Shown here: positions 5,109 to 60,174 of the stretch, in pieces
Position numbering within the stretch: position 1 is the stretch's first letter
How the letters are laid out: each line of letters begins with the position of its first letter
Assembly (NCBI GenBank): GCA_902768785.1
Contig: CACXMM010000032.1
Span: 1,017 to 65,016, forward strand
DNA: 64,000 bases
Direction: 5' to 3'
Origin: an uncultured Prevotellaceae bacterium
Lineage (GTDB): Bacteria; Bacteroidota; Bacteroidia; Bacteroidales; Bacteroidaceae
Notes under the pieces: model-generated
What the model saw: the letters and a program-made list of their open reading frames with translations, nothing else
What the model was told of the DNA's origin: nothing
Database searches by the model: none
Program-made: the position numbers and the translations under genes

Positions 5109-5122
5109 TCGCATTCCATTCA

Positions 5123-6121
5123 ATGAAGCGATACTGCTATATCCTGCTCACCCTGGCTCTGGTTTCGTGTGGAGCACCTAGCGGTCAGTTTAAGATCGAA
5201 GGCCGCTTCCTCAACCTGAACCGGGGTGAGTTCTATGTATATAGCACCGACGGACTCGTCAACGGTGTCGATACCATCCATACTGATGGCGGACGTTTCA
5301 GCTATCAGATCCCTTGTGAGCATTCAGGAACACTGATGCTGGTGTTCCCCAATTTCTCTGAACAGCCCATCTTCGCCGAGTCTGGTAAGACAGCTCATGT
5401 CAAGGGTGATGTCACCCACTTGAAAGAGATGTCGGTGGAGGGGACGGCTGCCAACGAGCTGATGACCCGCTTCCGTCAGGCCGTGGTGAATGCCTCACCT
5501 CCTGAGACTGTCACCAAGGCATCGTTGTTCATTCGGGATAATGCGGAATCACCCGTAGGCGTCTTTCTTTTAAAAAGGTATTTCATGCAGGGTGTCAATC
5601 CCGATCTGACGAAAGCGTCCGAGTTGCTGGAGACGTTAGTGAAAGCGCAACCCAAAAACGGAGAGCTGAACCGATTGATGAAAGATGTATCTGTTCTGAA
5701 GACTGCACAGGTGAACGCACCGATGCCTTCTTTCTCAGCGGTGGATATCAATGGACGGACAGTGACGAATGCTGATCTGCGTGGTAAGGTGTCGGTCATC
5801 CATGTGTGGTCAACCTGGAACTACGAGAGTCAGGATATTCAGCGCCGTTTGAGATCGCTCCGCGAGGAGAACGGTAGTAAACTTGGGGTAGTGGGAATCT
5901 GTATCGATGCCAGCAAGCGCGATTGCCGCAACTACCTCAAACACGACTCCGTGGGATGGTCAACAATCTGCGACGAGCAGATGTTGGAGAGTCCACTGCT
6001 TACAAAGCTGGGAATGATGTCGGTACCCGACAATATGATCATAGATACTAGCGGGAGAATCATTGCACGAGGACTGAATCCCAACGATATGCGGGAACGA
6101 CTGGAAAAACTCTTGAAATAA
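5123..6121 (+). CDS. TlpA/thioredoxin-fold lipoprotein lacking the CXXC active site
   Basis: Lipoprotein signal (LALVSCG). The C-terminal redoxin fold reads VIHVWSTWNYES where TlpA-type proteins have WASWCGPC. Confidence 0.6.
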   Translation: MKRYCYILLTLALVSCGAPSGQFKIEGRFLNLNRGEFYVYSTDGLVNGVDTIHTDGGRFSYQIPCEHSGTLMLVFPNFSEQPIFAESGKTAHVKGDVTHLKEMSVEGTAANELMTRFRQAVVNASPPETVTKASLFIRDNAESPVGVFLLKRYFMQGVNPDLTKASELLETLVKAQPKNGELNRLMKDVSVLKTAQVNAPMPSFSAVDINGRTVTNADLRGKVSVIHVWSTWNYESQDIQRRLRSLREENGSKLGVVGICIDASKRDCRNYLKHDSVGWSTICDEQMLESPLLTKLGMMSVPDNMIIDTSGRIIARGLNPNDMRERLEKLLK

Positions 6122-10900: not shown

Positions 10901-13900
10901 ATATCGAATTCAGTGTAACTTGTCCAGAGGGAACAATCCTTAACGTCAACAACATCGGTCTGAAGGTGGGTGCCGTCTCCACTAACAACATAAACTGTCA
11001 TATTTACTACTCCACCGACAACTTCTCCACACGCACTACGATATACTCACCCACGGGTATGACATCAGGTGAGATGAACGAAGTGAGTTCCTCGCCTGTT
11101 ATTCAGCTCGAAGAGGGTGAAAGCGTGAAGTTGCGCATTTATCCTTGGAGTACCAATGCATTTGATAGCGGCAAGTATATTGCAGTTAGCGATGTAGTAA
11201 TTAGTGGAAAGGCAAAGGATGCCGCAGGCGTGAACATTGAAGGGTCTATCACCTATGCGCTTGACAAGGGTGGATTGAATCAAGGCAATGATGTGGTATT
11301 CAATCCGGAAGCGTTAAGTGCAGGTTTCTCAGGAAAGACATGGACGGCAGGAAGTGCGCTGACTGTCAGCGGAACACAAAACTATCAAGGAGCTTCAGGT
11401 GAAGCCAACATTACACAGACAAAGGTCGCAAACGAATCTGGTAGTCAGACAGCTGACACAGCCAATAGAGATAATACACTCACTCTGACCCTTACACCAG
11501 AGGACGGTTTCACTTTCGTTCCCTCAAGAATCAGCTTCGAGGCTGCCCGCTACGGAACAGATGGTGGAAACATTGGTGCTTCTGTTGATGCTGGAGAGAC
11601 ACATGTTGACTTGGTGACCAATGCTGGTGTGAACCGAAGCGGTAAGTCTCTCACAATTGCAAGATTCTCAAATGAGGTCACAAATGTCACTGCCACTGCA
11701 GATAATCCTCTTAAAGTGAACTTCTCATTCTTGAAGATGAACAATGAAAAGTCCATGGGTATCTCTAATGTTGTCATCGAAGGCCAATTGGTAGGCTCTG
11801 CAGCACAAGTAACCAAATACATATTGACTACTCAAGTGTTGCCATCAGCAGAGGCTGGCTCTGTCAGCCGCAATCCTGATCTGGAACAGTATAAGGAAGG
11901 TTCTACGGTGACGTTGAAGGCTACCAAGAATTTCGGTTATCGGTTCGTGGAGTGGCAGGATGCCACAGGTGCAGTAGTAAGCACTGATGCAGAAACCACC
12001 GTCACGATGGATGCCGAGAAGACCATGAAAGCTGTGTTCGAGGCCGTACCGGTATATACCGTCAGTACCCAGGTGACCAACAATGCCGAGCGCGATGGCT
12101 TAGGCAGTATCTCACTGAGTCCCAATAACCATAACGGACAGTACGAGGCAGGAACGACAATTCAAGCTGTGGCCAATGAAAGCAAGATTCTGAAATTCCT
12201 CTCATGGACGGATGAGAATGAGAATGCCAATGCCACTGCAACGCGCGAGGTGACGGTGAATGGCGACATGACACTGGTGGCTAACTACGAGGTGCAGGAC
12301 TTCATTGCCGTATTCGATGCCAGCAAGACTGCTGAATACGCCTCATCAGGCCCCTATCCATTCCCTGCCGACGTGACCTGGGATAACAACCGCAATGCGA
12401 GGGTCTCCGTAGTGAAGCAGAGCGACGGCTCACTTGTCACAGGTACCAACAGTGTCCCAGTTGTTCGTAACCGCACGAACAGCGGTGTACTAACCACGCT
12501 CAGCGGTGTGTTCCAGAACGGTTATAACACCTCAAAGATTGCCTGGCAGTATCAGTTCTCTACAGTAGGCTTCACCTCCGCTACGTTCTATGCTGATATG
12601 GCAGCGAAGAATGCAGCCACCAAGAACTGGAAGGCTGCCATCTCTATCGACGGAACCACTTTTGAAGACCTGGGTGAAGCCTGGACGATGACCGCCAATA
12701 CTTTGACACCACTATCCTTCACACTCCCCGAGTCTGTCATCGGTAAGGAAACAGTATATCTCCGAATCATGGGAACAGGCGAGGAACTGCTCTCTGACAA
12801 ATTTTCTTTCAACGAAGGTACATCAGAAGAAGGATTAACCTATACCAGCAATTCAGAGAGTCAGATAGGTAATGTCTATGTACTTGGCGAGGCTGTGGTT
12901 GAGGCAGATGAGGAAGCTCCAATAGTAACAGCTACCATTCCCGCTGCTAATACCACAGGAGTAAGCGCAACTGGTAAGATCACCATTTCATTCAACGAGC
13001 GCATTCAAGAGGGTAACACCGATGGTCTGTCAACGCTCACTCCAGAGGGTGGTGATGCCATTGGTATGACACCACAATGGAGCAGTAGCTCAGTAAGCTT
13101 CAGATATAACGACCTCGACTACAGCAAGACCTACACCTTCATGATGCCAGCAGGATTCGTTACAGACCGTTCAGGGAATGCTGCCGAAGCAGTGACATTC
13201 AGCTTCACTACCATGCAGCGTCCTACTGTCACGAAGGGTGATTACGATGCTGTGGTGAGCACTGCCGCCGAGCTGAAAGCCGCCATCGATGCTGCCAACA
13301 GCCGTGATGACAAGAGTACTCGCTATCGTATCTTCGTGAAGAAGGGTGAATACAAGCTGCCTACAGGCGCTACGAAGCACTATATCCACCAGAACAATGA
13401 CAAGACCGAAACATACTGGGAAGGTGACCTGCCCGATCCCATCACTTACATCACCGCTGCCAACATCTCGTTCATCGGTGAGGATATAAACGCGACCGTC
13501 ATCACACAGGATATCACTAACGATGAAGACATGCTGTTTACAGGCCAGTTCGGAAAAGTACATAAGTACGAGGAGATCAGCAACAGTGCGGTGCTCCAGT
13601 TAGAGAGTACTGCCACAGGCACTTACTTCCAGGACATCACCATCAAGAGCGGTATTAACGATGCCTTAGGACGTAACCTCGCTATTCACGACAAGAGTTC
13701 GAAGACCATTTATAAGAACACCTTATTGTATGGATACCAAGACACATGGACATCAAATAACCAGAATGGTCTTTTCTATTTCGAGGACGGAGCTGTGCGC
13801 GGACGTACCGACTACCTCTGTGGCAAGGGTGATGCCTACTTCAAGAACGTTGAGCTCCGCCAATTGAAAAGTGGCTATGCTGCCGTTCCTTCTACACCTG

Positions 13901-23581: not shown

Positions 23582-26227
23582 TTATCGTTCAAAGAAAGAA
23601 CGGATGGGAGTCAGATAGGGGGTCAGCTCCCTGGTCATCACCCTGCCCCATGGAGACACATACTGACGGGAGTATGCTACGATGAGGCGTTTCTTGGCGC
23701 GTGAGATGGCCACATAGAATTTCCGTGCCTCCTCACCTTTTACCGCTCCCTCGTCAGCATAATAGCTGGGGAATTTCCCTTTCACAGCATCAAAGACGAT
23801 GACATGATCAAACTCAAGACCCTTGGCCTTGTGCACCGTTGAGACAAACACCCGTTCACGCATGCTCTTACTACCACAGAGATCAGCCTCCTTCAAGGTG
23901 TTGATCTCCTGCATGTGGACTGTCAGCTGCTCATACAGTGACGCCTCCCCCTGCAATAGGTCAGCTTGCAGATAGTCGAGGATATACGGCAGTTTGGGAA
24001 TCTCCCCGATCCGTTTCATCTCGCGCAGGTGCTGATAGACATAGTTCATCTCGCTCACCAGATCGGAACTCTCATGACGTTGGTACATCAGTTTTTTGGT
24101 ATGTGCAAAGATCTCTCCGTAGAGACGACGGAAACGTCCTATCACTGAAGCATGCCGATGAAGGAAGGACAGCTGTGCCTCGATGACCTCTCTTCCCCGC
24201 TGATAGCAGGCATTCACCACACTCAGCGTAGCCATGATATCGTCATTGGCCAAATGAGAGTTCTCTCCTTCCAGATGAAGTGATGTCAGCAGGTCCTTCA
24301 GTTTGTAGCTCCGCAGGTTAGGTATCACCAGTCGTGACAGTTTCAGTGAATCATAGTAGGAGGGCCACAGCTGCGCCATCTCACAGCCCTGACAATAGCG
24401 GCGCATGTTGTGATCCATGATCTGATAATCGTAGGTAGCGTTATGTCCTAAGATCATGCACCCGGCCGCGAACTCAGCGAAACGATTCATAGCCTCCCGA
24501 TGGGAGAGGTGTTCATGGAGGGCATACTCCTCTACCAACGGGTTTACCATATCTCCCAGCATGGAAGGAATCTCCCTTTCTGTCTCTATGAACAGGTTCA
24601 AGGTGTCGAGCACCTTTCCTGCCCGTACCTTCACCGCTGCTATCTGCACCACATCATCCTCGAAGACGTTCAGTCCGGTAGTCTCTGTATCAAAGATCAC
24701 GAAATCACGTTCCTGATAGTCTTTCAGGAATTCATTCAGGTAGCTCGTTCCCTCATACTGCAGGAAGTCAACCGGCGAGATGGCATGTGTCATCAACTCA
24801 TGCATGAACTGACGAGCCGCCGAATGACAGCCAAAGAGTTTCAGTCCTGTGAAGATCCGCGCCCAGGCAATAAAATTTGTCTCCTGCATCATCACATTAA
24901 AATGCGACAGCAGCAGACGGACATCTGCCGTGGTGAACACATCCACGCCGGAGATCTTGAAATGAGGTATCCGCAGCGCCTTGCTCACGTCATCGGCATC
25001 GTTGTTGAAAGCTACGATCACCGCGATGGTGTCCGTGGAATATGCTTGTGAGAGCTGCTCCACCAGTTGTGCCACCTCATGACACTCATCGATGTTGTTC
25101 AGGCTCTCCAGTAACCGTACCGCTCCCGGCTCTTGCTGCTGGTCCTCCCCCAGACTCTTAGGCAACAGTTCCGGTGCAATACCCAACTGATGTTCGCCGT
25201 AGCAGTTGTAGATATCCAATAGATACTTGGGGGAGCGGTAGTTGACAAAGAAATTATGCAGGCCATCCGCACCGCATCGCTGCCGTAGCATATTCAGTGT
25301 GTCGAGCTTGGCTCCCATAAAGGAGAAGATAGCCTGCTGGGCATCACCCAGATAGACCACCGTGGCCCCCTTGGCGGTGAACAGGTCGATGATTGCCAGC
25401 TGCAGGGGGTTCAGGTCCTGCACCTCATCCACCTGTATCCACCGGTATTGTTTTCTCGATGGTGCTGATCGTGAAGCGGAAGTGTTCGTCAGTTCCGCAT
25501 AGGTGCGCAGCAGCAGGTCCTCGAAGTCGAGCAGGTGATGCTCTTCCTTATACCGCTCGTAGCAGTGTGCCGCATAGAGAGCTTTCAGCAACGACTGTGC
25601 CTCGGCACTCATCCATACCGGCTGACTGGCATAATGGTCAATATGCTCATACAGTTCAATGGTGGAATCCTGGGTATAGGGCATGCTGAAATCCGTGCAC
25701 AGCTCCCGCAGGGCTACAGCTGACAACGCATCCCGGTGAACCATCAGTTCGCCGGGATCATGCCGGCGACACTGTACCATCAGGTGCTGAAGGTTCATCA
25801 CCTGTGAGTAGTGCTGACGACTCTTGTTGTCTGCCAGCACCTGTAGCTCATCGTCACCCATGTAGTCGGCGATGATACTCACCGACACGTCGTTATCGAT
25901 GATCGACGTATCCTCCTCTACCACCCCGTATTCAAACAGGAACTGGGAACAGAAGCGATGCACGTTACCCACAAAGAGCCCACTCGTATCCAGGTTGTTT
26001 GAGGCAGAGAACATCTCGATTCGTTCCCGCATACCTCGCGAAGCCCTGTTGGTAAAGGTGAGGCATGCCATTTCCTCGAAAGGCACGCCTCGCTCGTGAG
26101 CCTTAATGATCCTCTCTGCCAACACCGCCGTCTTTCCACATCCCGGAGGTGCCAGCACCAGATGGTAGCCGTCGGCAACCTCAATCACCGCCTGCTGCTC
26201 CTCATTGAACTGTCTTTCGTCATTCAT
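23582..26227 (-). CDS. UvrD/PcrA-type SF1 helicase with embedded DnaQ-like (DEDDh) 3'-5' exonuclease domain
   Basis: Walker A APPGCGKT and motif II IQVDEVQD. The exonuclease ExoI block is VIFDTETTGL, and HNATYDY...HLANDD follows later. A UvrD C-terminal block (STVHKAKGLEFD) is present. Confidence 0.8.
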   Translation of the reverse strand: MNDERQFNEEQQAVIEVADGYHLVLAPPGCGKTAVLAERIIKAHERGVPFEEMACLTFTNRASRGMRERIEMFSASNNLDTSGLFVGNVHRFCSQFLFEYGVVEEDTSIIDNDVSVSIIADYMGDDELQVLADNKSRQHYSQVMNLQHLMVQCRRHDPGELMVHRDALSAVALRELCTDFSMPYTQDSTIELYEHIDHYASQPVWMSAEAQSLLKALYAAHCYERYKEEHHLLDFEDLLLRTYAELTNTSASRSAPSRKQYRWIQVDEVQDLNPLQLAIIDLFTAKGATVVYLGDAQQAIFSFMGAKLDTLNMLRQRCGADGLHNFFVNYRSPKYLLDIYNCYGEHQLGIAPELLPKSLGEDQQQEPGAVRLLESLNNIDECHEVAQLVEQLSQAYSTDTIAVIVAFNNDADDVSKALRIPHFKISGVDVFTTADVRLLLSHFNVMMQETNFIAWARIFTGLKLFGCHSAARQFMHELMTHAISPVDFLQYEGTSYLNEFLKDYQERDFVIFDTETTGLNVFEDDVVQIAAVKVRAGKVLDTLNLFIETEREIPSMLGDMVNPLVEEYALHEHLSHREAMNRFAEFAAGCMILGHNATYDYQIMDHNMRRYCQGCEMAQLWPSYYDSLKLSRLVIPNLRSYKLKDLLTSLHLEGENSHLANDDIMATLSVVNACYQRGREVIEAQLSFLHRHASVIGRFRRLYGEIFAHTKKLMYQRHESSDLVSEMNYVYQHLREMKRIGEIPKLPYILDYLQADLLQGEASLYEQLTVHMQEINTLKEADLCGSKSMRERVFVSTVHKAKGLEFDHVIVFDAVKGKFPSYYADEGAVKGEEARKFYVAISRAKKRLIVAYSRQYVSPWGRVMTRELTPYLTPIRSFFER

Positions 26228-28266: not shown

Positions 28267-28290
28267 TGCTATATCAATAATACATTAAAA

Positions 28291-28388
28291 TCTCTAATCT
28301 CTCATCCCTCATCTCTCATCCCTCATCTTTCATCCCTCATCTTTCATCTTTCATCTTTCATCTTTCATCTTCCATCTTCCATCTTTCA
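28291..28388. repeat. heptanucleotide tandem array TCYYTCA x14 spanning the MATE stop codon
   Basis: Units read in register: tctctaa, tctctca, tccctca, tctctca, tccctca, tctttca, tccctca, tctttca x4, tcttcca x2, tctttca. Confidence 0.9.
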
Positions 28389-29767
28389 TCCAGTCCCCCT
28401 CTCATCCATTTGCCACGGAACATCCGCCACAGGAAGATGCATCCCCTGAAGGTCAGCTCGATGGCCATGGCAGTCCACACACCCCGCAAACCATAGTCCT
28501 TTGCCAGCCATGCGGCTAACGTCAGACGCACCAGCCACATCGAACAGAGGTTCATGATGGCCGGACGTAAGGTATCGCCGGCGCCCACGAAGGCACTGTA
28601 GCAGACGATCGAGGCGGCAAACATCGGTTCGGCAAAGGCCTCGATGCGTAACACCGAAGCACCTAAGTCAATGATCTCTTGCACAGGAGTCATCAATGCC
28701 ATCAGTTCTGGTGCAAAGAGATACATCACCGCTCCCATCAGGGCCATCACCAGCATTCCCGAGAACACCGTCATCCGGGCAAAGCTATGGCAAAGCTCCC
28801 TACGCCCTGCACCCATGCTTTGACCAATCAGTGTTGTGGCAGCCTCCCCCAGACCATAGCCCGGCATGTAGCACAGACTTTCAGCAGTGATGGCAAAGGT
28901 GTTTGCGGCAATGGCGATATTCCCCAAGGGTGCCACGATCATCGTACTCACAATCTGCGCCCCACTCATCAAGATGCTTTGGGCAGCCATCGGGATACTG
29001 ATCTTCAGGGCATTCCGGATATACTGACCGTTCCAAGTGAACCGTGACATCCGCTGTCGCATACGACTCACTAGGGCCAATGACTCACTTCTGAAGATCG
29101 CATAGTAGGCAAGCACGCAGCCACCGATCACCATGGCCAGTCCTGTACCCAAGGCGACACCCAACACTCCGAGGTGGAAAATGAAGATGAAGATAAAGTT
29201 AAACACCACATCCATCACACACATGATGATGCTCATCATACTCGGTATGCGCATGTTTCCACTGCATTTCAGCATAGCCCCCGATAGGTTGGAGAGTTGG
29301 AAGAAGGGCATCACCATCATGAACACGGAGAAATAGATGGTGGCATCACCGGCGATGTCGGCACCACCGCCTAACCAATAGGGCAGACGTCCCGCGATGC
29401 ACAAACCGCTGATGCCGATCAGCACACTGAACAGGAGGGTGCACAACAGACCATGGCGGAACACCTCTCGTGCTTTCTCGAAGTCATTGGCACCAATGAA
29501 ATGAGCCACCTGGACGGAGAAACCCATGGAGGCGGCACCTGTCATACTGCCACATAACCAGGTGGATGACTCCACCAAGCCACAGGCGGCAGCGGCCTCC
29601 ACACTGATACGTCCCACCATCGCCTGATCGATGAAAAACATCATCACGCTGGTGATCTGTGCCAATATAGAGGGGATACTCAACTGTACAATCAGGTTGA
29701 GTTTCTGCTGATTCGTCATGGTCTGCCCATTACGAATCATCTCCAGCAACGCTTCACTTTTCTTCAT
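28358..29767 (-). CDS. MATE family efflux transporter
   Basis: Polytopic hydrophobic protein with two MatE-like halves. Start set at MKKSEALLEMI (29767), 20 nt downstream of a TAACTTTG box. The upstream part of the ORF is translation of a duplicated promoter module. Confidence 0.8.
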   Translation of the reverse strand: MKKSEALLEMIRNGQTMTNQQKLNLIVQLSIPSILAQITSVMMFFIDQAMVGRISVEAAAACGLVESSTWLCGSMTGAASMGFSVQVAHFIGANDFEKAREVFRHGLLCTLLFSVLIGISGLCIAGRLPYWLGGGADIAGDATIYFSVFMMVMPFFQLSNLSGAMLKCSGNMRIPSMMSIIMCVMDVVFNFIFIFIFHLGVLGVALGTGLAMVIGGCVLAYYAIFRSESLALVSRMRQRMSRFTWNGQYIRNALKISIPMAAQSILMSGAQIVSTMIVAPLGNIAIAANTFAITAESLCYMPGYGLGEAATTLIGQSMGAGRRELCHSFARMTVFSGMLVMALMGAVMYLFAPELMALMTPVQEIIDLGASVLRIEAFAEPMFAASIVCYSAFVGAGDTLRPAIMNLCSMWLVRLTLAAWLAKDYGLRGVWTAMAIELTFRGCIFLWRMFRGKWMRGGLDERWKMEDER

Positions 29768-29783
29768 GGATGTTGTATCTGAC

Positions 29784-29907
29784 TGCAAAGTTACGGAAAG
29801 TTGAGTGCAGAACAAAACAAATTCATTTGTTTTGTTCTGCCGAGACGGAGTAACTTCACAACTTTGTTGCAAAGTTACTGAAAGTTGAGTGCAGAACAAA
29901 ATAAATT
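29784..29907. repeat. two direct copies of a ~40-nt promoter module (TGCAAAGTTAC[G/T]GAAAGTTGAGTGCAGAACAAAA) 84 bp apart, with a 14-bp perfect hairpin between them
   Basis: Copies start at 29784 and 29868. The hairpin is CAGAACAAAACAAA-TTCA-TTTGTTTTGTTCTG at about 29808-29839. Confidence 0.85.
29786..29793 (-). promoter_or_regulatory. -7 box TAACTTTG (proximal copy) for the MATE gene; a second copy lies at 29870-29877
   Basis: TAnnTTTG on the minus strand. It is part of a ~40-nt module duplicated 84 bp apart. Confidence 0.55.
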
Positions 29908-30146
29908 GTTTCTTTTTTCTATTTTAGGTGTGGATTGCGGATGCGGATTATTTATGCCCGTACCCTTGTGTCTTTGTGTGTATTTGTTATAATTTTGAAG
30001 GATCTTGACGAATTAACTTCGTTTAACGCGAATAACGGGCATTTGGGGAACCAACTGTCCTTTCGGTCGAAAAAACGCGATTCTCGCGAGGTTTGATAAG
30101 TTGCTGATTATGAGCACATTGTGAAAATTCGGCATTTTTGACTTGC

Positions 30147-30240
30147 GAAAACGGCGTTTTTAGGAGCCAAAAACATAGGTTTTAGGGGGTAAAAACACCG
30201 TTTTTAGGTGGTGAAAACACTGTTTTTGTGAGGTAAAAGG
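30147..30240. repeat. four-and-a-bit tandem 22-bp units RAAAACAnnGTTTTTAGGnGGT, each with an AAAAC/GTTTT dyad
   Basis: Units begin at 30147, 30169, 30191 and 30213 (exact 22-bp period), with a partial fifth unit. Confidence 0.9.
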
Positions 30241-30254
30241 ACTATTGTTTCTTT

Positions 30255-30399
30255 CTTGGGGGTGCCCTTACGGGCAGAAATCCTACAAAATTTATCCAAA
30301 ATCAAACAAAATCTATCACCCAAAAACAAATCTATGCCACAGAAATTTGTAAGATTTGGATAAATTTTGTAGGATTTCTGCCCGTAAGGGCACCCCAAG
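30255..30399. repeat. 45-bp inverted repeat (one 1-nt indel) separated by a 54-nt spacer
   Basis: Left arm 30255-30300 is CTTGGGGGTGCCCTTACGGGCAGAAATCCTACAAAATTTATCCAAA. Right arm 30355-30399 is its reverse complement minus one G. Confidence 0.92.
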
Positions 30400-30435
30400 A
30401 ACTTTCAAAAGTAAAAACCGAAAATTTTCGAAGAA

Positions 30436-30527
30436 GCGTCATCTACGGGTTGTTCCGACGGCATCTATCACTCATTCCGCCGTCATCTATAGGGGTAAAG
30501 TGACGGCGGAACGACCCTTAGATGACG
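30436..30527. repeat. CGTCATCTA-type repeats at 22-bp spacing plus an inverted copy; nested hairpins
   Basis: CATCTA occurs at 30440, 30462 and 30484, with the inverted TAGATGACG at 30519. The inner 11-bp stem is TTCCGCCGTCA (30476) / TGACGGCGGAA (30501). Confidence 0.85.
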
Positions 30528-30550
30528 TCGGAAAGGGTGTAAGTAACGTT

Positions 30551-30627
30551 AACCTTTACTTGGGTTTAAAGTAACCTTTACTTGCCTGCAAGGTAACCTT
30601 TACTTTGAGTCCAATTAGCCTTTACTT
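30551..30627. repeat. four direct AACCTTTACTT (one AGCCTTTACTT) units at an exact 22-bp period
   Basis: Unit starts at 30551, 30573, 30595 and 30617. Confidence 0.9.
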
Positions 30628-30816
30628 GCACAAAAAGTGCCTTTTGGATATTTCCATAGCCTCCAACCTTTCACGTTCTCCCAATTAGAGAACTTTTGCA
30701 ATACTTAATTTTTTACGAATTATCTTGACAGAACCTCACGCAGAGTTAACGAAGTTCGCAGAGAATCTCAAAAGAAAACTCACGCTGGAGTGGGGTCAGT
30801 AATTCAATTCGTACAA

Positions 30817-31515
30817 TCAATGGGTGAACCCCAAGGAAAGCAGACTGAGGCATTGGGGATGGGCTTTCTGCAGCTCTTGTCCGCAGGCGATGAGGGTGGC
30901 ACCGGTGGTCACCACGTCATCGATGAGGAGAAGGTGCTTTCCGGAGATTTTGTCTGCGTTGATCAGTTGGAACGCCTTGGCCACATTCTCCTGTCTTGAG
31001 CGTCGGTCTTTCTGTGTCTGACTGTCTGTGAAACTGATACGCCGCAGGGCATCATGACAGATGGGGATCCCTGTGACCTCTTGGATACCCCGTGCGATTT
31101 CCATGCTCTGGTTATATCCGCGTTGCCTTTCCCTGACGGGTGCCAAAGGAACGGGAAGCAGGAAGTCGATGCCTTCGAAGAAGCCACTGCTGATCATCTC
31201 CAGGGCCATCATCCGTCCCATCTGCTCACCCATCTCGGGATGGTTGCCGTATTTCATCTGGTAGATGACTTGGCTCGACTGTGCGTGAGCCTCATAATAG
31301 AACAGGGCTGCTGCTTTCTCTACGGGTATCTGCAGCCAGAACGTCTTGGCCATCTCGTTGTCGAGGGGATGGTTCCAGAAAAAAGTGCGCGGCAGATGAC
31401 GGTTGCAGGAAAGACAGAGCGTCTCTTCTGCTACGCCTAATCTGTTGCCACAGACAGGACAGGCACGGGGGGAGATAAGATCGAAGAGTCGGGTGAAGAA
31501 GCTGATCATCGGCAT
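30817..31515 (-). CDS. comF: ComF family protein (phosphoribosyltransferase domain)
   Basis: N-terminal zinc finger CPVC...CLSC and C-terminal PRTase motif LLLIDDVVTTGATL. Confidence 0.85.
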   Translation of the reverse strand: MPMISFFTRLFDLISPRACPVCGNRLGVAEETLCLSCNRHLPRTFFWNHPLDNEMAKTFWLQIPVEKAAALFYYEAHAQSSQVIYQMKYGNHPEMGEQMGRMMALEMISSGFFEGIDFLLPVPLAPVRERQRGYNQSMEIARGIQEVTGIPICHDALRRISFTDSQTQKDRRSRQENVAKAFQLINADKISGKHLLLIDDVVTTGATLIACGQELQKAHPQCLSLLSLGFTH

Positions 31516-32009: not shown

Positions 32010-32897
32010 TTAGATTCCTTTTCTTCCCATGATGAAGCGATGCTTCCCGAACTGGTCATCCCTGACAATGATGTCGGTGAACCCTTCTTGACGTAATAGG
32101 ACTTGGAGTGCTTCCATGTAGAGCGGATTTGCCTCGAAGTAGAGGCTACCGCCAGGATGGAGGGTATGACGGGCATAGCGGCTGATGGCCTGATAGAACA
32201 GCAATGGCTCTTCCTCTGGAACAAAAAGGGCGAGATGAGGCTCGTAAGTCAGTACGTTCCTGTCCATGGCAGTCTGCTCACTGGGACAGATATAGGGTGG
32301 ATTGCTCACGATGGTGGACCATTTTGATGAGGGATGAGGGATGAGGGATGAGGGATGAGAGAGTATGTCGCGTTGTTCAAAGGTTACGTGAACATTATTA
32401 CGTCTGGCATTCTGTTGTGCAATCCTCAGGGCATCGTCGGAGATGTCCCAGGCGGTTACCTTCGATTCTGGGAGTTCCGAGGCCAAGGTGACGGCGATAC
32501 AGCCACTGCCCGTACCGATATCGAGTATGCTCTCTCTTTCCTCCTTCCTCCTTTCTCCTTTCTCCTTTCTCCTTTCTCCTGTCTCCTTCCTGATAATCCA
32601 TTGACACAGATCGGCGGTTTCTGGTCGGGGGATGAGTACGCCTGGCTCCACATGGAACGACCGACCGCAGAACTCGGCTACGCCCACCACATACTGTACG
32701 GGCTCACCCTGTAACAATCGGCTACGCAATTCCTTCAGTTCCTCCTCAGGTAATCTTTCCACCCCGCCACAGACAATATCCGTCATGGTCAGTCCATAGC
32801 GTACTTCCAACAGATAGCGGGCAACGGCTTTTGCCTCACCAGAATCATAGACGTTGGATAGGGGTTTCCAGAGCTCTTCATATTTCATCAGTTGCAA
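32010..32897 (-). CDS. prmC: release-factor glutamine N5-methyltransferase PrmC/HemK
   Basis: SAM motif LDIGTGSGC and catalytic IVSNPPY. It contains two heptamer-array-encoded insertions. Confidence 0.88.
   Translation of the reverse strand: MQLMKYEELWKPLSNVYDSGEAKAVARYLLEVRYGLTMTDIVCGGVERLPEEELKELRSRLLQGEPVQYVVGVAEFCGRSFHVEPGVLIPRPETADLCQWIIRKETGERRKEKGERRKEERESILDIGTGSGCIAVTLASELPESKVTAWDISDDALRIAQQNARRNNVHVTFEQRDILSHPSSLIPHPSSKWSTIVSNPPYICPSEQTAMDRNVLTYEPHLALFVPEEEPLLFYQAISRYARHTLHPGGSLYFEANPLYMEALQVLLRQEGFTDIIVRDDQFGKHRFIMGRKGI
32326..32360. repeat. heptanucleotide array GATGAGG x5 inside prmC
   Basis: Units at 32326, 32333, 32340, 32347 and 32354. On the sense strand it encodes HPSSLIPHPSS. 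Confidence 0.9.
32541..32589. repeat. heptanucleotide array CTCCTTT x7 inside prmC
   Basis: Units at 32541-32589. On the sense strand it encodes GERRKEKGERRKEE. All three minus frames are open here. Confidence 0.9.
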
Positions 32898-33960: not shown

Positions 33961-34428
33961 TTATTTCCTTCCGAAGTCAGCGGGAATCTCGCCCCATTGG
34001 GCGGTCTCCCATTTGATGATGGGATTGCGGAAGGTATTGGTGCGGAGCCAGTTCTCGGCACGAGCGATGATCTGGTGCAGTTGCTCTGTTTCGGGATTGT
34101 GGGGAAGGGTGGTCTTGCAGCGTTTCTTGTTTACCCAGAGGATGGCGTTGTAGCTGTCACTATAGATGGTCTTGCAGATTCCCATCTGCTGTTGTAAGGC
34201 CAAAGCATGGACAATAGCGAGGAACTCACCGATGTTGTTAGTGCCGTACATCGGTCCGAAATGAAACACCTGCTGTCCTGTGGCCAAATCTATTCCCTGA
34301 TATTCCATCTTACCAGGATTGCCGCTGCAGGCGGCATCCACCGCCCAAGCGTCCGCCCTCACCTCAAGAGGTAAGGGCAGTACCGTATCATTTCGATTCT
34401 CTGGTGGATTTAAATGATCAATTTTCAA
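33961..34428 (-). CDS. rnhA: ribonuclease H (type 1) family protein
   Basis: AWAVDAACSGNPG..MEYQG block and TNNIGEFLAIVHAL. There is no ATG before the catalytic Asp, so the only in-frame start is the TTG at 34428, inside a heptamer array. The start is uncertain. Confidence 0.7.
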   Translation of the reverse strand: MKIDHLNPPENRNDTVLPLPLEVRADAWAVDAACSGNPGKMEYQGIDLATGQQVFHFGPMYGTNNIGEFLAIVHALALQQQMGICKTIYSDSYNAILWVNKKRCKTTLPHNPETEQLHQIIARAENWLRTNTFRNPIIKWETAQWGEIPADFGRK

Positions 34429-34446
34429 TTTTCAATTACCAATTTT
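34419..34446. repeat. heptanucleotide array CAATTTT x4 between the argS stop and the rnhA start
   Basis: Units at 34419, 34426, 34433 (CAATTAC) and 34440. Confidence 0.9.
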
Positions 34447-34453
34447 CAGTTCC

Positions 34454-36238
34454 TTACATTCTCTCCGGCACTTCGATTCCTAACAGGGCCATGCCATTCT
34501 TGATGATCTTGGCGACGTTCTTGGCGAGGACGAGGCGTACTTGTTTCTTCTGCTCATCAGGCTCGTTCAGGATACTGTAGTCGTTGTAGAACTGGTTAAA
34601 GATCTTAGTCAGCTCATAGCAGTAGTTGGCGATACCGCTGGGAGAGTAGTCTTTGCCAGCCTGTTCCACGGCAGCACTGTATTCGCTCATCTTCTGGATC
34701 AGCTCGATCTCCTTAGGAGATAATTGACAATTGACAATTGACAATTGACAATTCTGGGTGGCCGCTTTCCTTAGGATGCTTCGGATACGGGCGTGGGTAT
34801 ATTGGATGAAGGGACCGGTATTGCCGTTGAAGTCAATACTTTCTTCAGGGTTGAACAGCATATTCTTGCGGGCATCCACTTTCAGGATGAAGTATTTCAA
34901 GGCACCCATGCCCACGATGCGGGCAATCTCGCGGCGCTCCTCTTCGGTGATGTCATTGAACTTCCCAAGCTCCATGCTGGTACGGTAGGCGTCGCTGACC
35001 ATCAGTTCCATCAGGTCATCGGCATCCACCACCGTTCCCTCACGACTCTTCATCTTACCATTAGGCAGTTCCACCATACCATAGGAAAAATGCACCAATT
35101 CCTTACCCCATTTGAAGCCAAGACGGTCGAGTAGGATAGAGAGTACCTGGAAATGGTAGTTCTGCTCATTGCCCACCACATAGATCATCTTGTCGATGGG
35201 GTAGTCGTTGAAGCGCATCTCAGCGGTACCGATATCCTGTGTCATATAGACACTGGTTCCGTCACTTCGAAGCAACAGTTTTTTGTCGAGTCCCTCATTG
35301 GTGAGGTCAGCCCATACACTGTTGTCATCGTGGCGTTCGAAGAGTCCTTTGGCGAGTCCTTCCTCCACCTTGGCCTTACCTTTCAGGTAGGTCTGACTCT
35401 CATAATAGATCTTATCGAACGCAACACCTAATTTCTTGTATGTCTCATCGAAACCGGCATAGACCCAACTGTTCATCTTCTCCCACAAGGCACGTACTTC
35501 AGGATCATTCTGTTCCCATTTCACTAACATCTCATGGGCTTCTTTGATCAGAGGAGCCTCTTGCTTGGCTTTCTCTTCATCCATGCCCTGAGCCATCAGT
35601 TCCTTGACTTCCTCGCGGTAGTGCTTGTCGAAGGCTACGTAATAGTCACCAATCAGGTGGTCACCTTTCTTACCACTGCTCTCGGGAGTCTCACCGTTGC
35701 CCCATTTCAGCCATGCCAGCATTGACTTACAGATATGGATACCACGGTCGTTCACAATGTTGGTCTTCACCACCTTGTTCCCGTTGGCGGTCATAATCTG
35801 TGCCAAGCTCCATCCTAACAGGTTGTTGCGCACATGACCTAAATGCAATGGCTTGTTGGTGTTGGGTGAGGAATATTCGATCATCACCAAAGGTGACGCA
35901 TCGGTGGCCGTCTTTTCTCCATAGTGGTCATGGGTATCAATGTCACCAAGCAGGTCGAGCCATGCCTCCTGTGAGATGACCAGATTCAGGAATCCCTTCA
36001 CTACATTGAAATCATCAATTTCCCTGCATTGTGCTTTCAACCATCCGCCAATTTCCTGGGCTGTGTCTTCGGGTTTTTTCTTGGAAATCTTCAGGAACGG
36101 GAATACCACCAAGGTGAGATTCCCTTCGAATCCGGCTTTTGTCTTTTGTAACTGTACCATTTGCTGAGGTACATCCTGACCATACAATTCTTTCACGGCC
36201 GCCATCACGGCACGCTCAATGGATCTTTCTATCTTCAT
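34454..36238 (-). CDS. argS: arginine--tRNA ligase
   Basis: Class I HIGH-type block PNTNKPLHLGHVRN and a DALR anticodon-binding C-terminus ending GIEVPERM. 594 aa. Confidence 0.92.
   Translation of the reverse strand: MKIERSIERAVMAAVKELYGQDVPQQMVQLQKTKAGFEGNLTLVVFPFLKISKKKPEDTAQEIGGWLKAQCREIDDFNVVKGFLNLVISQEAWLDLLGDIDTHDHYGEKTATDASPLVMIEYSSPNTNKPLHLGHVRNNLLGWSLAQIMTANGNKVVKTNIVNDRGIHICKSMLAWLKWGNGETPESSGKKGDHLIGDYYVAFDKHYREEVKELMAQGMDEEKAKQEAPLIKEAHEMLVKWEQNDPEVRALWEKMNSWVYAGFDETYKKLGVAFDKIYYESQTYLKGKAKVEEGLAKGLFERHDDNSVWADLTNEGLDKKLLLRSDGTSVYMTQDIGTAEMRFNDYPIDKMIYVVGNEQNYHFQVLSILLDRLGFKWGKELVHFSYGMVELPNGKMKSREGTVVDADDLMELMVSDAYRTSMELGKFNDITEEERREIARIVGMGALKYFILKVDARKNMLFNPEESIDFNGNTGPFIQYTHARIRSILRKAATQNCQLSIVNCQLSPKEIELIQKMSEYSAAVEQAGKDYSPSGIANYCYELTKIFNQFYNDYSILNEPDEQKKQVRLVLAKNVAKIIKNGMALLGIEVPERM
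34722..34754. repeat. heptanucleotide array AATTGAC x4.5 inside argS
   Basis: Units at 34722, 34729, 34736, 34743 and a partial one at 34750. On the sense strand it encodes QNCQLSIVNCQLS. Confidence 0.9.
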
Positions 36239-50245: not shown

Positions 50246-50362
50246 AAATGAACAATGATAGTCAAGTTATAAAGGCTTAGATAATATTGTGAGAAGACCT
50301 TTGTAAAGAATTGGCAGTAGGAAGTCATCAAGGCTTTTAGAGAACGAAATGCGCAGAGGTGT

Positions 50363-50445
50363 TGCACAAGCTGTGCAGCACCTTTGCACAAGTTGTGCAA
50401 CATATCTGCACAAGTTGTGCAACGCATCTGCACTATTCGTGCGAG
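50363..50445. repeat. four units at an exact 22-bp period, each carrying the palindrome TGCACAA-N-TTGTGCA (outer units degenerate)
   Basis: TGCAC starts at 50363, 50385, 50407 and 50429. Units 2 and 3 are a perfect 7-1-7 palindrome. Confidence 0.9.
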
Positions 50446-53997: not shown

Positions 53998-54001
53998 ACT
54001 C

Positions 54002-54036
54002 AAAAAAGTGCAGACCACCATTGGCCTGCACTTTTT
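54002..54036. terminator. bidirectional terminator at the core/island junction
   Basis: A6-GTGCAGACC-ACCATT-GGCCTGCAC-T5: a 9-bp stem with one mismatch. Confidence 0.65.
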
Positions 54037-54224
54037 CTATCTAATAACACTTTATTACTTCACCTCCTCGAAAACGACTTTAACTGACTATCAATGCGTT
54101 AGCACCGGATGTTGCACACATGTCGCAAAAACGGAAATAACCATTGATAATCATTTGGTTGGGTGTAGAATGCTCAAATGGCAATGAAACGGTAAATGGA
54201 GAAAGAAATGCCACATAACTCTTC

Positions 54225-56540
54225 CTACTCATTTTCTTGGTTAACAGCAGCTTCTTCAGTGGGAATAAAAGGAGCTACTTTGTCCACATTGTCATATTCT
54301 CCTTCATTAGTCAAACGATATTTTATTTTGATGCTGACTATAGGATATTTATTAGGTTTAAAGAATAACTTTGGCCCCCATATTGCAGTAAACAAAGAAT
54401 ACTGATTAACCTTATCGCCAAGCTTAGTCTTTATTGGCTCTTCAAGTAATTCTGGATGCTCAGATATCTTTTCAAGAGACAGCCAAAGGCCATATAAATC
54501 ATTCATCTTCTCCAAACATAACTTCTCCTGTTCTTCTACTGTTGGTTCATAAAAATCCAAGAAAGGTCGGTCTTCAAATCTCATTACATAAACCATCTGA
54601 GAGAAAAATTCTGTACTGCAATCCAATGAAAGAATCTGGATTCCTTTATACGAATACTTATGATCCGTTCCTTTCTTAAGATCTTTTATTGTACCAATAT
54701 AGTAATCAAAATAAAGTCCAAAAGCAATTATATAATGCTGCTCGTTGAGATTTAGTTTATCAATAGCTTGGAACAAATCTTCTGATGACAAGCTATAGTC
54801 CGTTTGACTATGTTCCGCATAGAACGAACTTGCAAACATATGCTGAAAATTGTGTAGCATATAGGATGACACACAACCAGCAATACCAGCATGTCCCACA
54901 TCTGGATTATTCAAAAATGCAGTATTTGGGAAAGGCATTGTCACTGATGAGTTCAAGTTATAGCACTTATCCTGCGAGAATCTTCTTCCTAACAAATCGC
55001 CATATGGCGCCATTGCTCTTATAATATTACCAGTTAACTCATGTTCTTCAGAATCGATTTTCTCTTCGCTTAATGGAAGGGTTGTCCTTAAATGTTCCAT
55101 TTTGGCAAGAATTTCCTTTTGCATACGAGAAGCCAATTGGTCTGGTCGCAATAGATTTGCTTTGTCATAAATCAATGCTTTTTCTTCGATTTCCTTGTCA
55201 AAGGAGGTAAAACGTACGACATTGAGCAAGTCTTTATTATCTTTAATCCGTTCTAACCATCGTTTGAATACATCTAAATTTTCCTTCAATGTGTTGAGTT
55301 CTGACAGAGTGTCTGGTAATGCACCTGTATTTAGTATAGACTCATATCCATAGTTCCAACGTATAACATAAATACGATAAGCCAATAGTGCAAGGTAGCA
55401 ATTTGCGGCACCGACAATTTTGCCTTCTGTAATACCATGCATATTAGGCATTTGGTATCTTGATTCATAATAGAACGGATCAACAAAACTATTATGGTTT
55501 ATTCTATTGAAGGCAGCTATTATATCACTTAAATTTGAAGGCACTAAAGGATAAGATGGGGGTTCTGATTGTGTAAATGAAAGCATAAGTTCCAACAATC
55601 TATATTTCTTCTCTTGGATGAGCATTGAACACAACATGATGTGAAACTCCATGAATTTCTCACGTTGTTTCTGATTTTCTTCAATTTGCTCCTGAGTATA
55701 AGGCTTACCGTCCTCATCATAGATATATTGGTGTATTGGTTTCATAAAAAGACCTATCTTCTGTGATGCCATTTTCCAATACTCCATAATCCACTCATCT
55801 TTGTTATAAAACATTTGTATTCTAAGATTCCTCCATAGATAAATATAGGTGGTTTCAGATACTACAGAATCCAACAAAATAAGGGAGGTCAAAATGGAGT
55901 TTTCATTGTTGACTGATATTGGTTTTGATTCACCTTTACTCAGAAATTCATTAATACGAGAAACACCTTCATAATAATATTGGTCAAATTCCAAAGATTT
56001 ACCCTTGTTGTCCTTGTTTTCTTTGTATGCCCGCGCCGTATATTTAGGTAATTCTCTATATACATCTTGTACAATTTCATCATCTGGAGATTTCCCTAGT
56101 TCCCCCAATAGGTCAACCCATTGAGTAAAATATTTTGCTTCTTTCGCTTTGTCTTTCTTTTCTACGGCCTTATTGTAATCTTCTATTATTTCCTTTTGTA
56201 AGTCATTGATTTTATAGTAAGTGATAATCTTTGAAAAGAGAAGCAAAGCGCACGAAACCAGAACAATAGCACCAATGCATTGCAACCCCATTATAATTCT
56301 TGCATGAGTACACATATCCATAAGGAAAGGGAATAGTACCGCCATAATAAGATTTATCACTAAACATCGCTTAAACCAAATGAATATAGTTTCACCCATA
56401 AATCTTTCAGATAGCTTTGTGGAACCAAACTTATCTTCTATTTTTCCAATGCATCCTATCACTAACGGATAAGACAAACCAAATAGTGTAGATAGGATAG
56501 ATAATACTCCGCTATATGTATAGTTTACAAAATCGAACAT
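54225..56540 (-). CDS. 771-aa membrane-anchored protein of unknown function (three N-terminal TM helices plus a large unassigned domain)
   Basis: Hydrophobic segments are GVLSILSTLFGLSYPLVIGCIG, CLVINLIMAVLFPFLM and IIMGLQCIGAIVLVSCALLLF. The rest is K/E/N/Y-rich and soluble, with no motif I recognise. Its start is 2 nt after the upstream stop. Confidence 0.6.
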   Translation of the reverse strand: MFDFVNYTYSGVLSILSTLFGLSYPLVIGCIGKIEDKFGSTKLSERFMGETIFIWFKRCLVINLIMAVLFPFLMDMCTHARIIMGLQCIGAIVLVSCALLLFSKIITYYKINDLQKEIIEDYNKAVEKKDKAKEAKYFTQWVDLLGELGKSPDDEIVQDVYRELPKYTARAYKENKDNKGKSLEFDQYYYEGVSRINEFLSKGESKPISVNNENSILTSLILLDSVVSETTYIYLWRNLRIQMFYNKDEWIMEYWKMASQKIGLFMKPIHQYIYDEDGKPYTQEQIEENQKQREKFMEFHIMLCSMLIQEKKYRLLELMLSFTQSEPPSYPLVPSNLSDIIAAFNRINHNSFVDPFYYESRYQMPNMHGITEGKIVGAANCYLALLAYRIYVIRWNYGYESILNTGALPDTLSELNTLKENLDVFKRWLERIKDNKDLLNVVRFTSFDKEIEEKALIYDKANLLRPDQLASRMQKEILAKMEHLRTTLPLSEEKIDSEEHELTGNIIRAMAPYGDLLGRRFSQDKCYNLNSSVTMPFPNTAFLNNPDVGHAGIAGCVSSYMLHNFQHMFASSFYAEHSQTDYSLSSEDLFQAIDKLNLNEQHYIIAFGLYFDYYIGTIKDLKKGTDHKYSYKGIQILSLDCSTEFFSQMVYVMRFEDRPFLDFYEPTVEEQEKLCLEKMNDLYGLWLSLEKISEHPELLEEPIKTKLGDKVNQYSLFTAIWGPKLFFKPNKYPIVSIKIKYRLTNEGEYDNVDKVAPFIPTEEAAVNQENE

Positions 56541-56542
56541 AG

Positions 56543-56851
56543 TTACTTTTTGTTATTTTGATATATCTTCTTCTGAAATTTTAGGATCTCATCCGAATTG
56601 TCTCTTATTTTTTGTATCTCCTCTTTTATAATTGAGTTGCTAGATTTGTGGTCTAAGTTCATAGAGTCCAATACTGAAGACTTTCCTAGCAACATATCTT
56701 GCATTTCTACCTGTCTGTGAAATAAACTATCCTTTGACAAATCTGTAGATTTTTTGCTCTGCATCTCTTCATTGAAGGAAATATTATTGAGTATTGCGAA
56801 CCCAATAATGACAACACAAAGTAGTATGATAAAAGTTATAATTTTCTTCAT
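56543..56851 (-). CDS. small single-TM coiled-coil protein of unknown function
   Basis: ATG at 56851 (MKKIITFIILLCVVIIGFAIL). The ORF-track start at 56890 is a TTG. Translationally coupled to the 771-aa gene. Confidence 0.5.
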   Translation of the reverse strand: MKKIITFIILLCVVIIGFAILNNISFNEEMQSKKSTDLSKDSLFHRQVEMQDMLLGKSSVLDSMNLDHKSSNSIIKEEIQKIRDNSDEILKFQKKIYQNNKK

Positions 56852-56960
56852 ATTATTGCTTTTGCGTCTTTTGTAATCTTTCCAAGCCAACTTCCACGCA
56901 TCTTTTGATACTTAATTTTAGGTGACAGTACGGAGCTGTTTGGGGAGATATCCCCTAATA

Positions 56961-57539
56961 CTATTTTTCTTTAGCTAATTGACGTATATCCTCTGCCAAC
57001 ATTTCAATCAATCTATAAATGCCAGTTGATGGATTCTGGAATTCACCCAATTTCTTTGCTCTTGTAACAGCAACATCTGTGTTGCTGTTCAGAAATGCTT
57101 TTTGAGTATCAGTGAAAGCTGACTTGGAATAATTCTTCCACACAGGAGCGCTTTTCTTCAACTCTTTGATGAGTGCATCCGTTTCGATGGCTGCCTTCTG
57201 GTCTTTGGCATGAAGTAGCAACCATATTTCAAAACAAGGATTGCTTAACAGCATTTCAGCCTTGCATTTACGTAGTTTTTCATTGATAGCCTGCACGTCC
57301 ATGTCGTACATGAGGAACGTATGCACCTTGTCCCATTGAGAGATTTTGAGTTCCTTTGTACGCTTCTCAACCAACGATGGCGTGATCTTTGTGCCTTCTA
57401 TGTGCGAAATGATTCTGATGGGTGACTTATACCACGATTTCAGAAGATTGATATAGCAAACCTCTGTCTCGCCCTCGCAAATGACAAGGGCGATCTTTCG
57501 CATTCGCAAAGATGGTGACGGTTCTCTTTTGCTTGCCAT
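56961..57539 (-). CDS. RloB-like (Toprim-type) protein, AbiLii-like
   Basis: IALVICEGETEVCY (RloB CEGExTE signature; Toprim Glu) and FLMYDMD (DxD). Its start is 2 nt after the ATPase stop. Confidence 0.7.
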   Translation of the reverse strand: MASKREPSPSLRMRKIALVICEGETEVCYINLLKSWYKSPIRIISHIEGTKITPSLVEKRTKELKISQWDKVHTFLMYDMDVQAINEKLRKCKAEMLLSNPCFEIWLLLHAKDQKAAIETDALIKELKKSAPVWKNYSKSAFTDTQKAFLNSNTDVAVTRAKKLGEFQNPSTGIYRLIEMLAEDIRQLAKEK

Positions 57540-57541
57540 AA

Positions 57542-59349: not shown

Positions 59350-59422
59350 CCAAAGGATACAAAAGTGAAGAAAAAGGCAACAGAAAAGATGATTTTCCTT
59401 CGTTATTTCGTGAGAAATTAGC

Positions 59423-59430
59423 TAATTTTG
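59423..59430 (+). promoter_or_regulatory. -7 box TAATTTTG upstream of the HTH gene
   Basis: TAnnTTTG match 43 nt before the ATG at 59473. Confidence 0.5.
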
Positions 59431-59472
59431 TACGTGTAAATTATAATAAGGTACAACCTCAGCACAATAAGA

Positions 59473-60166: not shown

Positions 60167-60174
60167 TTAAGATT

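Follow-up and report, generated by a model that had tools for sequence, protein, structure and literature searches.

We analyzed a 64-kb stretch of DNA from an uncultured Prevotellaceae bacterium (contig CACXMM010000032.1), referred to below as the window, and focused on the gap between its MATE and comF genes. On the basis of sequence comparison, the block in this gap most probably belongs, as one copy among many, to a family of modular, non-coding repeats dispersed in the intergenic DNA of ruminant-gut Prevotella. Both genes lie on the minus strand, with the MATE start at 29767 and the comF stop codon at 30817-30819, and the intergenic gap between them (29768-30816) has no coding potential. 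The element itself spans ~29982-30732 in a short form, or extends to 30783 in a long form, and is thus roughly 750-800 bp long. Full or partial copies occur at ~24 different genomic sites, counted after merging the same site across samples; they are 613-924 bp long, have no conserved open reading frame (ORF), and combine a fixed order of modules with a variable internal copy number. The element therefore has the features of a small, non-coding, multi-copy dispersed repeat and of a modular intergenic repeat, the latter by architecture and not by homology. The longest open frames of the copies differ in strand, frame, and position, none is shared, and any reading frame would be broken by the 22-bp indels that separate the copies.

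The copies were found by two routes. A 20-mer from the center of the block's second repeat array (array B) was searched in 185,579 species representatives and matched two contigs of one uncultured Prevotella metagenome-assembled genome (MAG), where the two copies are 72-82% identical to the window and have unrelated neighbors. A metagenome scan that used a pair of adjacent cores from the third array (array C) as bait returned 23 loci; BLAST alignment bore out all of them, as did an nhmmer profile that combined 16 sequences from 12 independent copies. The samples with copies are ruminant, such as the bovine metagenome of loci L053-L055, and the copies differ from one another by 12-28% (72-88% identity). 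Among the genes beside them are those for a sugar-binding AraC regulator, an EamA transporter, a BspA-type leucine-rich-repeat protein, an asparagine synthase, and a ComEA-like protein. These neighbors are unrelated, and all four combinations of flanking-gene orientation occur, including convergent 3′ ends. An earlier note on this DNA, written from the letters of the window, had proposed looking for other copies and took many dispersed, near-identical ones as the mark of a simple repetitive element; dispersed copies do exist at the ~24 sites, but at 72-88% identity they are not near-identical. Six of the eight contigs with a 99%-identical ComF end within the element, as do L008, L010, L046, and L047, which is the usual signature of a repeat that assemblers fail to cross.

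The comF locus provides a second view of the block. We compared the window with contigs that encode an identical ComF protein. In some of these the far-side neighbor differs, being a set of SNO/SNZ genes (L003) or a gene for a Flg_new_2 protein (L004), yet comF is again followed by sequence that matches window 29981-30816. Starting from the comF side, L003 and L004 show no difference from the window over more than 5 kb of genes (100% identity), up to ~30640; beyond that point, in the left half of the block, identity falls abruptly to 75-88%, and different neighbors follow. This pattern would be expected from a crossover, or from an assembly join, between paralogous copies. A relative with 92% ComF identity also has the block. 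Downstream of comF in relatives with ComF at 83%, 69%, and 65% identity, the block is absent, and the gaps after the gene measure 267, 7, and 171 bp, respectively. The block is therefore not an ancestral feature of that locus, and it is not tied to any particular neighboring gene.

Much of the earlier description of the block stands. It had been called a gene-free block containing three arrays with an exact 22-bp period, and we confirmed that the gap is intergenic, with no ORF conserved among copies, and recovered all three arrays within a few bases of where they had been placed (array A by a direct-repeat search and by Tandem Repeats Finder at period 22, and array C also by the direct-repeat search). 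The inverted repeat reported between arrays A and B is present, with arms of 42 nt instead of 45. Related words that had been noticed near both ends of the block are real and belong to a terminal direct repeat that marks the limits of the element, which bears out the closing hint at a non-autonomous element of ~750 bp. The motif AAAACNNNGTTTTTAGG from array A occurs five times in the window, always in the array, against 0.31 expected, and none of 100 shuffles reached this count; for the array C core GTAACCTTTACTT, four of the five window matches fall inside array C. Motif scans and the family profile detected no further copies of the block motifs elsewhere in the 64-kb window. The parts of the copy in the window are as follows.

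29982..30783, no strand: the whole element in its long form, delimited by the family profile and by the limits of homology among 12 copies.
29987..30012, plus strand: left terminal direct repeat, TTAtAATTTT--GAAgGATCTTGACGAA, from the end-to-end consensus alignment.
30013..30147, no strand: leader with the conserved blocks TTAACTTCGTTTAACGCGAA, CCTTTCGGTCGAAAAAACGC, and CATTTTTGACTTGCGAAAAC, in which per-column identity is at least 0.9 against 0.77 element-wide.
30076-30088: small leader hairpin, CGCGA-TTC-TCGCG.
30148..30235, plus strand: array A, four 22-bp units with the core AAAAC-NNN-GTTTTTAGG, whose unit starts are exactly 22 bp apart.
30254..30401, no strand: nested palindromic cassette, from the inverted-repeat search.
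30259-30300 and 30355-30396: cassette arms, 42 nt each and 100% complementary, with a 54-nt loop (30301-30354) between them.
30263-30276 and 30379-30392: terminal mini-hairpins of the cassette, TGCCC-TTAC/GTAA-GGGCA, one per arm.
30437..30533, plus strand: array B, with direct 22-bp units CGTCATCTA-N6-GTTCCGA at 30437, 30459, and 30481.
Ending at 30527: inverted unit of array B, from the inverted-repeat search.
30550..30627, plus strand: array C, four 22-bp units with the core (AAG)TAACCTTTACTTG, from the repeat search.
30628..30704, no strand: tail, poorly conserved except for CCAATTAGAGAACTTTTGCAA in the copy alignment.
30705..30732, plus strand: right terminal direct repeat, TTAATTTTTTACGAATTATCTTGACAGA, from the end-to-end consensus alignment.
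30733..30783, minus strand: right extension of long-form copies, with a promoter-like site pointing into the element.

The order of these modules is fixed: terminal direct repeat, leader, array A, an optional cassette, array B, array C, tail, and terminal direct repeat. The direct and inverted units of array B can form a hairpin, with the stem TTCCGCCGTCA/TGACGGCGGAA around an invariant center, GGGGTAAAGTGA.

The limits of the element were read from the alignment of the 12 independent copies. Shared homology begins at ATTTGTTA / ATTTGTTAA (window 29982), and the right limit falls after ...ATCTTGACA, TTGACA(A/G), at ~30732, but about half of the copies continue for another 50 nt (to 30783). In the window, the alignment of the nhmmer family profile covers 29983-30780. 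Throughout the family, the ends carry a 26-28 bp terminal direct repeat, TTAAATTTTT(AC)GAAT(G/T)ATCTTGAC(G/A)AA. When the consensus left and right ends are aligned directly, the score is 35, which none of 300 shuffles reached. When the left end is aligned with the reverse complement of the right end, the score is 15, equal to the null mean of 15 and matched or exceeded by 160 of 300 shuffles, so there is no terminal inverted repeat. Because this test fails, it is unlikely that the element is a classical MITE (miniature inverted-repeat transposable element), i.e. a deletion derivative of a DDE-transposase insertion sequence with terminal inverted repeats that are now degenerate. Such an origin would fit the size, intergenic placement, multiplicity, and absence of coding capacity, and there is a precedent with IS5-type ends in the BrickBuilt repeats of Porphyromonas gingivalis, discussed below. 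The ends of our element are direct and not inverted repeats, however, no target-site duplication is seen, and no related insertion sequence was found in any of the 61 loci.

We also compared the left and right repeats within each copy with those paired across copies and found that they are no more alike within one copy than between copies (16.0 vs 16.6; 1880 of 2000 permutations gave at least the observed value). This background-level likeness speaks against the terminal repeats being fresh att or target duplications. Integration in the manner of a cis-mobilizable element (CIME) was likewise rejected, since the putative attL and attR do not share an identical core within each copy despite the terminal direct repeat. 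No solo terminal-repeat motif that might serve as an attachment site was detected in the window, where the only match with up to three mismatches is the right repeat itself at 30705-30732. The right extension showed no significant homology to the leader, as a tandem or rolling-circle model would have it, or to the neighboring D3 promoter repeat.

A related and quite unlikely possibility, considered from the sequence layout, is that the element is a gene-less integrative mini-circle or satellite. Its terminal direct repeats would recombine to release a circle of ~720 bp, and its arrays and bent DNA would draw on a helper plasmid, integrative and conjugative element (ICE), or phage for replication, partition, or recombination proteins, or would titrate such proteins as chromosomal decoys. 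The conserved cores, their exact spacing, and the terminal direct repeats are all consistent with such a scheme, but the two repeats within a copy are not identical and no helper, binding protein, or circle junction was seen. If it were true, the element would be a purely cis-acting parasite, or a defense, made only of binding sites.

Among the 12 independent copies, mean pairwise identity is 0.77 over the whole element; in array A it is 0.97 in the core columns and 0.73 in the spacers, and in array C it is 0.94 and 0.73, respectively, a contrast that is partly biased because the C core served as search bait. Array A was never a bait, so its contrast between core and spacer is not an artifact of how the copies were found. 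Several leader blocks are conserved as strongly as the array cores. The 22-bp spacing is retained across copies while the number of units changes: array A has 0-5 units (0 in L020; 5 in L005, L030, and L029), array B 2-4 direct units beside one inverted unit, and array C 3-6. Gains and losses mostly occur in exact 22-bp steps, as in array B, where one 22-bp unit was gained or lost between copies, and in array C, where the alignment gaps are exactly 22 columns. Other indels occur as well; in the window, for example, 16 nt are deleted where array C begins. Two points of the earlier note bear on these results. It had proposed comparing array copy numbers between strains, and these vary in 22-bp steps between copies; its emphasis on helical phasing fits cores that are far better conserved than spacers, although the local operator or iteron that it had in mind does not hold.

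The central palindrome is a separable nested cassette that can flip, be deleted, or be replaced. Copies L019, L021, and L029 are without it and retain a single mini-hairpin at that spot, while a solo cassette is found in L042 (~12990-13150), just after a gene and ~10 kb from a full element. In L003, the 54-nt loop has the opposite orientation to that in the window, and a 33-nt segment that occupies the left side of the cassette in some copies is found reverse-complemented on the right side in others. At the asnB locus (L057 and L058), an unrelated AT-rich cassette takes the place of the palindrome between the same kind of mini-hairpins. Strains at this locus with near-identical flanks have left halves that are ~85% identical and right halves that are 99-100% identical. 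Together, the cassette swaps and the mosaic halves indicate that the element is a mosaic, that copies exchange segments, and that a hairpin-bounded slot accepts different inserts. Clusters of TCGCC-NNNN-GGCGA mini-hairpins with AT-rich inverted-repeat segments between them (GAAACGAATTTGAATAATT...) also occur at L019 4140-4560 and L057 ~5050-5290; they are of the same kind as the replacement cassette at the asnB locus, which suggests a cassette-exchanging, hairpin-bounded slot. Repetitive extragenic palindromic (REP) sequences and REPINs are pairs of inverted GC-rich palindromes mobilized by RAYT transposases, and the cassette has a comparable layout, with two inverted GC-rich palindromes around a short spacer at several independent sites.

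Based on these observations, we propose how a dispersed modular repeat of this kind might work. Cores spaced by 22 bp are two helical turns apart and would hence lie on one face of the DNA. From their conservation and exact phasing, we infer that the array cores are cis-acting binding sites for proteins supplied in trans, which would assemble a multi-protein complex on the element. Our leading guess, which we hold only tentatively, is that this complex acts in the spread or maintenance of the element itself through recombination, and that the terminal repeats are the ends that recombine. Inserted copies would persist for a long time and diversify by 22-bp replication slippage and by gene conversion between copies. 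The central palindrome would be a small REPIN- or MITE-like cassette, held between GC-rich mini-hairpins, that is inverted, lost, or swapped.

Several points weigh against a mobile repeat family. Pfam scans of the neighbors found no transposase, integrase, or other mobility gene beside any copy, and the profile detected no leader or tail fragment next to a transposase, as an autonomous relative would have, in 61 loci. No target-site duplication is visible in the 12 aligned copies, and the background-level likeness of the two terminal repeats within a copy, described above, points the same way. No empty-site allele was recovered at the comF or asnB locus in a search by exact or near-exact flanking proteins (comF, MATE, and asnB): every close relative has the element, and more distant relatives have other neighbors. 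The joins in L003 and L004 could be assembly chimeras instead of real rearrangements. The multiplicity stems partly from different strains and species in metagenomes, not from one complete genome, and since the copies were found by exact B- and C-core patterns, the sample is biased toward intact cores. Finally, at 72-88% identity the copies are old, and the family may have lost its mobility; if it is immobile, the conservation of the cores could reflect a host function at each locus.

This last point leads to the main alternative, host domestication, which we consider unlikely. Under it, immobile copies would be kept by selection as binding platforms, and their phased arrays would recruit nucleoid-associated proteins or regulators that act on local transcription or chromosome structure. 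Cores at 0.94-0.97 identity beside spacers at 0.73, in copies that differ by 12-28%, are what such selection would leave, and a copy present at one locus is found there in related strains as well. No sign of recent recombination is seen in the terminal repeats of the two ends, the right end has promoter-like sites, and a different 22-bp dyad array at 50362-50442, upstream of a gene, occurs again in L011. A common regulatory role is nonetheless difficult to reconcile with copies in every gene-orientation context, including between convergent 3′ ends. Whole modules are also dispensable, as array A is absent in L020 and the cassette in L019, L021, and L029, and we know of no candidate binding protein.

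The array at window 50362-50442 is an observation of its own and is unrelated in sequence to the element. It consists of 3.6 units of TGCACAAGTTGTGCAAC plus a 5-nt spacer, again with a 22-bp period, around a core that forms a perfect 8-bp dyad, TTGCACAA/TTGTGCAA. A small signal-peptide ORF (ATG at 50537) begins ~90 bp downstream of it. The same array is found downstream of the comF homolog in L011 (4851-4924), adjoining a LytTR/histidine-kinase pair. Given this recurrence, phased 22-bp dyad arrays seem to be a recurring theme in these genomes.

The 22-bp period had originally led to the idea of an origin, an iteron array, or an operator. This idea fails: the block is multi-copy and has no Rep gene, no plasmid match, and no cluster of DnaA boxes. 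As one of many dispersed copies, it was rejected as a chromosomal origin (oriC), as a plasmid-type iteron origin, and as a local operator. It is highly unlikely, in particular, that the chromosome has captured in this block an orphan plasmid-type replication origin (with iterons for Rep) or a partition site. Iterons of the Rep_3 type classically come as four or five 22-bp direct repeats, as in pPS10 and R6K, array A has phased A and T tracts, and one relative (L017) has a Rep_3 gene near the same operon. However, Pfam scans found no Rep or Par gene beside any of the ~24 copies, distant-mode BLASTN returned no similarity to 72,556 plasmid records (PLSDB) or 50,697 phage records, and the array motifs are absent from viral contigs in pattern scans. 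Many copies in one genome would also be incompatible with a working origin. The Rep_3 gene of L017 belongs to an insert, linked to a tRNA, that lies at the opposite side of the operon and has no matching repeats.

In that relative, whose ComF is 65% identical, the Rep_3 gene is followed by a minus-strand tRNA gene (L017 168-2040), and both stand upstream of prmC, where the window has ribD. The region is probably a tRNA-linked integrated element. Its Rep_3 gene was considered as a partner of our element and judged unrelated, as the insert holds no related repeats.

A chromosomal origin, or a local operator for MATE or comF, is extremely unlikely. Two DnaA-like words, TTATCCAAA, are present, one in each arm of the palindrome as the earlier note had seen, and cumulative GC skew dips to a local but shallow minimum near 30 kb. 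However, these two words are mirror images of each other in a single palindrome, and one-mismatch words (26 in the window against 18 ± 4 expected) are neither clustered nor enriched in the block. The GC-skew test that had been suggested for an origin gave no clear reversal, and the flanking genes are on the same strand on both sides. The element exists in many copies, the block remains beside comF where other genes have taken the place of MATE, and comF orthologs of related species lack it.

Strong folding and a promoter-like site raise the question of an RNA product. On the minus strand, a Bacteroidetes-type promoter-like site points into the element (TTTG at 30772-30769, N20, and TAACTCTG at 30748-30741). 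A regex scan found this TTTG-N20-TAACTCTG site in five of the 12 copies (the window, L038, L042, L021, and L036) as a motif match only, and transcription from it is possible. We consider it very unlikely that the copies are genes for a family of structured non-coding RNAs, with this site as one possible promoter. The predicted site in five of the 12 copies, folding z-scores of -8.7 and -11.7, and mini-hairpins with GTAA or TTCG loops are consistent with such a family. On the other hand, fold energies and G-U counts are symmetric between the strands in the 12 copies, and mismatches in the arms are mostly non-wobble (18 of other types vs 7 G:T and 3 A:C). RNAalifold on the leader gave -7.6 kcal/mol with a covariation term of -0.6 and no convincing consensus structure. 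Rfam returned nothing at the gathering score, with only matches to generic long hairpins (plant MIR families and BTnc060) far below threshold, and whole modules are gained, lost, or replaced, unlike in a defined fold. The element is thus probably not a structured RNA.

Another promoter-bearing repeat lies just outside the element. Directly upstream of MATE, at window 29784-29917, a 50-nt segment is duplicated 84 bp apart, and each copy has a consensus Bacteroidetes promoter on the minus strand, TTTG-N19-TAACTTTG. A perfect 16-bp palindrome (29807-29840) coincides in part with the first copy. Segments that resemble these stand beside other copies of the element (L030 6352-6445 and L039 264-382), which suggests that this is a dispersed repeat too, small and promoter-bearing.

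The family has practical consequences. It breaks metagenome assemblies of rumen Prevotella and may also yield chimeric joins, so those who build MAGs for these abundant organisms should mask the element or use long reads to resolve it. The strain-level rearrangements seen beside comF may stem from recombination between copies. In ordinary MITEs the layout is different: here, the most conserved parts are internal, in three phased core arrays, and the ends are direct repeats. This architecture points to a set of DNA-binding proteins and possibly to spread without a transposase, and the arrays supply defined 22-mers that can be used as baits for the partner proteins.

Some features elsewhere in the window were recorded in passing. 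Five tandem arrays with 7-nt units are present (28290-28390, 32326-32359, 32533-32588, 34418-34448, and 34722-34753), and in one of them 14 repeats of ATCTCTC run over the end of the MATE gene; these could be slippage-prone tracts. The region 54000-64000 has a GC content of 0.35-0.41, compared with about 0.45-0.54 elsewhere in the window, and may be horizontally acquired. On the minus strand at 23582-26227, a UvrD-type helicase of 881 aa carries, inside the stretch that matches the C-terminal helicase domain UvrD_C, an inserted RNase_T-type exonuclease domain (residues 510-670).

A literature search on Prevotella intergenic repeats of this kind gave nothing specific, and we therefore regard the family as undescribed. 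By architecture, its closest analogues appear to be the BOX elements of Streptococcus pneumoniae and, as the nearest described, BrickBuilt. BOX elements consist of boxA, a variable number of boxB, and boxC; they are roughly 100-400 bp long, with boxB units of 45 nt. We know of no transposase that belongs to BOX and of no established mechanism for its mobilization. Like the Prevotella element, BOX is a modular, non-coding intergenic repeat with one variable-number module, many dispersed copies, and strong hairpin potential. It differs in belonging to another phylum, in its unrelated sequence and shorter length, and in having neither 22-bp phased core sets nor a nested flipping cassette.

Two other systems resemble parts of the element. 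REP/REPIN sequences are comparable with the cassette only, which shares with them two inverted GC-rich mini-palindromes, a long hairpin, solo occurrence (L042), and presence or absence at a fixed site. At ~140-200 bp, however, the cassette is larger than a typical REPIN, and its mini-hairpins are of two sequence types, GCCC/GGGC and CGCC/GGCG. Rep_3-type plasmid origins (pPS10, R6K gamma) carry iteron arrays, and these resemble the arrays of the element in having four to five direct repeats, a 22-bp period, and AT-rich bent DNA alongside. The Prevotella element differs in that it has no adjacent rep gene, is chromosomal and multi-copy, comprises three unrelated arrays, and has no plasmid homolog that we could find.

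BrickBuilt of P. gingivalis consists of a leader, a 23-nt minisatellite, and a tail, and occurs in 19 intergenic copies with promoter activity (Klein et al. 2015, PMC4596501). It comes from the same phylum as the Prevotella element and is likewise dispersed, strictly intergenic, non-coding, and up to ~1 kb long, with partial copies; both also combine a leader, a variable-number tandem array (of 23-nt units in BrickBuilt), and a tail, and both have promoter-like segments (PMC4596501). In BrickBuilt there is a single minisatellite, its units not separated by spacers, and the ends are IS5-type terminal inverted repeats of 12 nt, GAGACCTTTGCA (PMC4596501). The two share no sequence similarity, and membership in the BrickBuilt family was rejected, given that the element has ends of its own (ATTTGTTAA... 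/ ...ATCTTGACA) and units composed of a core and a variable spacer at 22 bp. Unlike BrickBuilt, the Prevotella element is built from three different arrays of cores with free spacers, a nested cassette, and terminal direct repeats.

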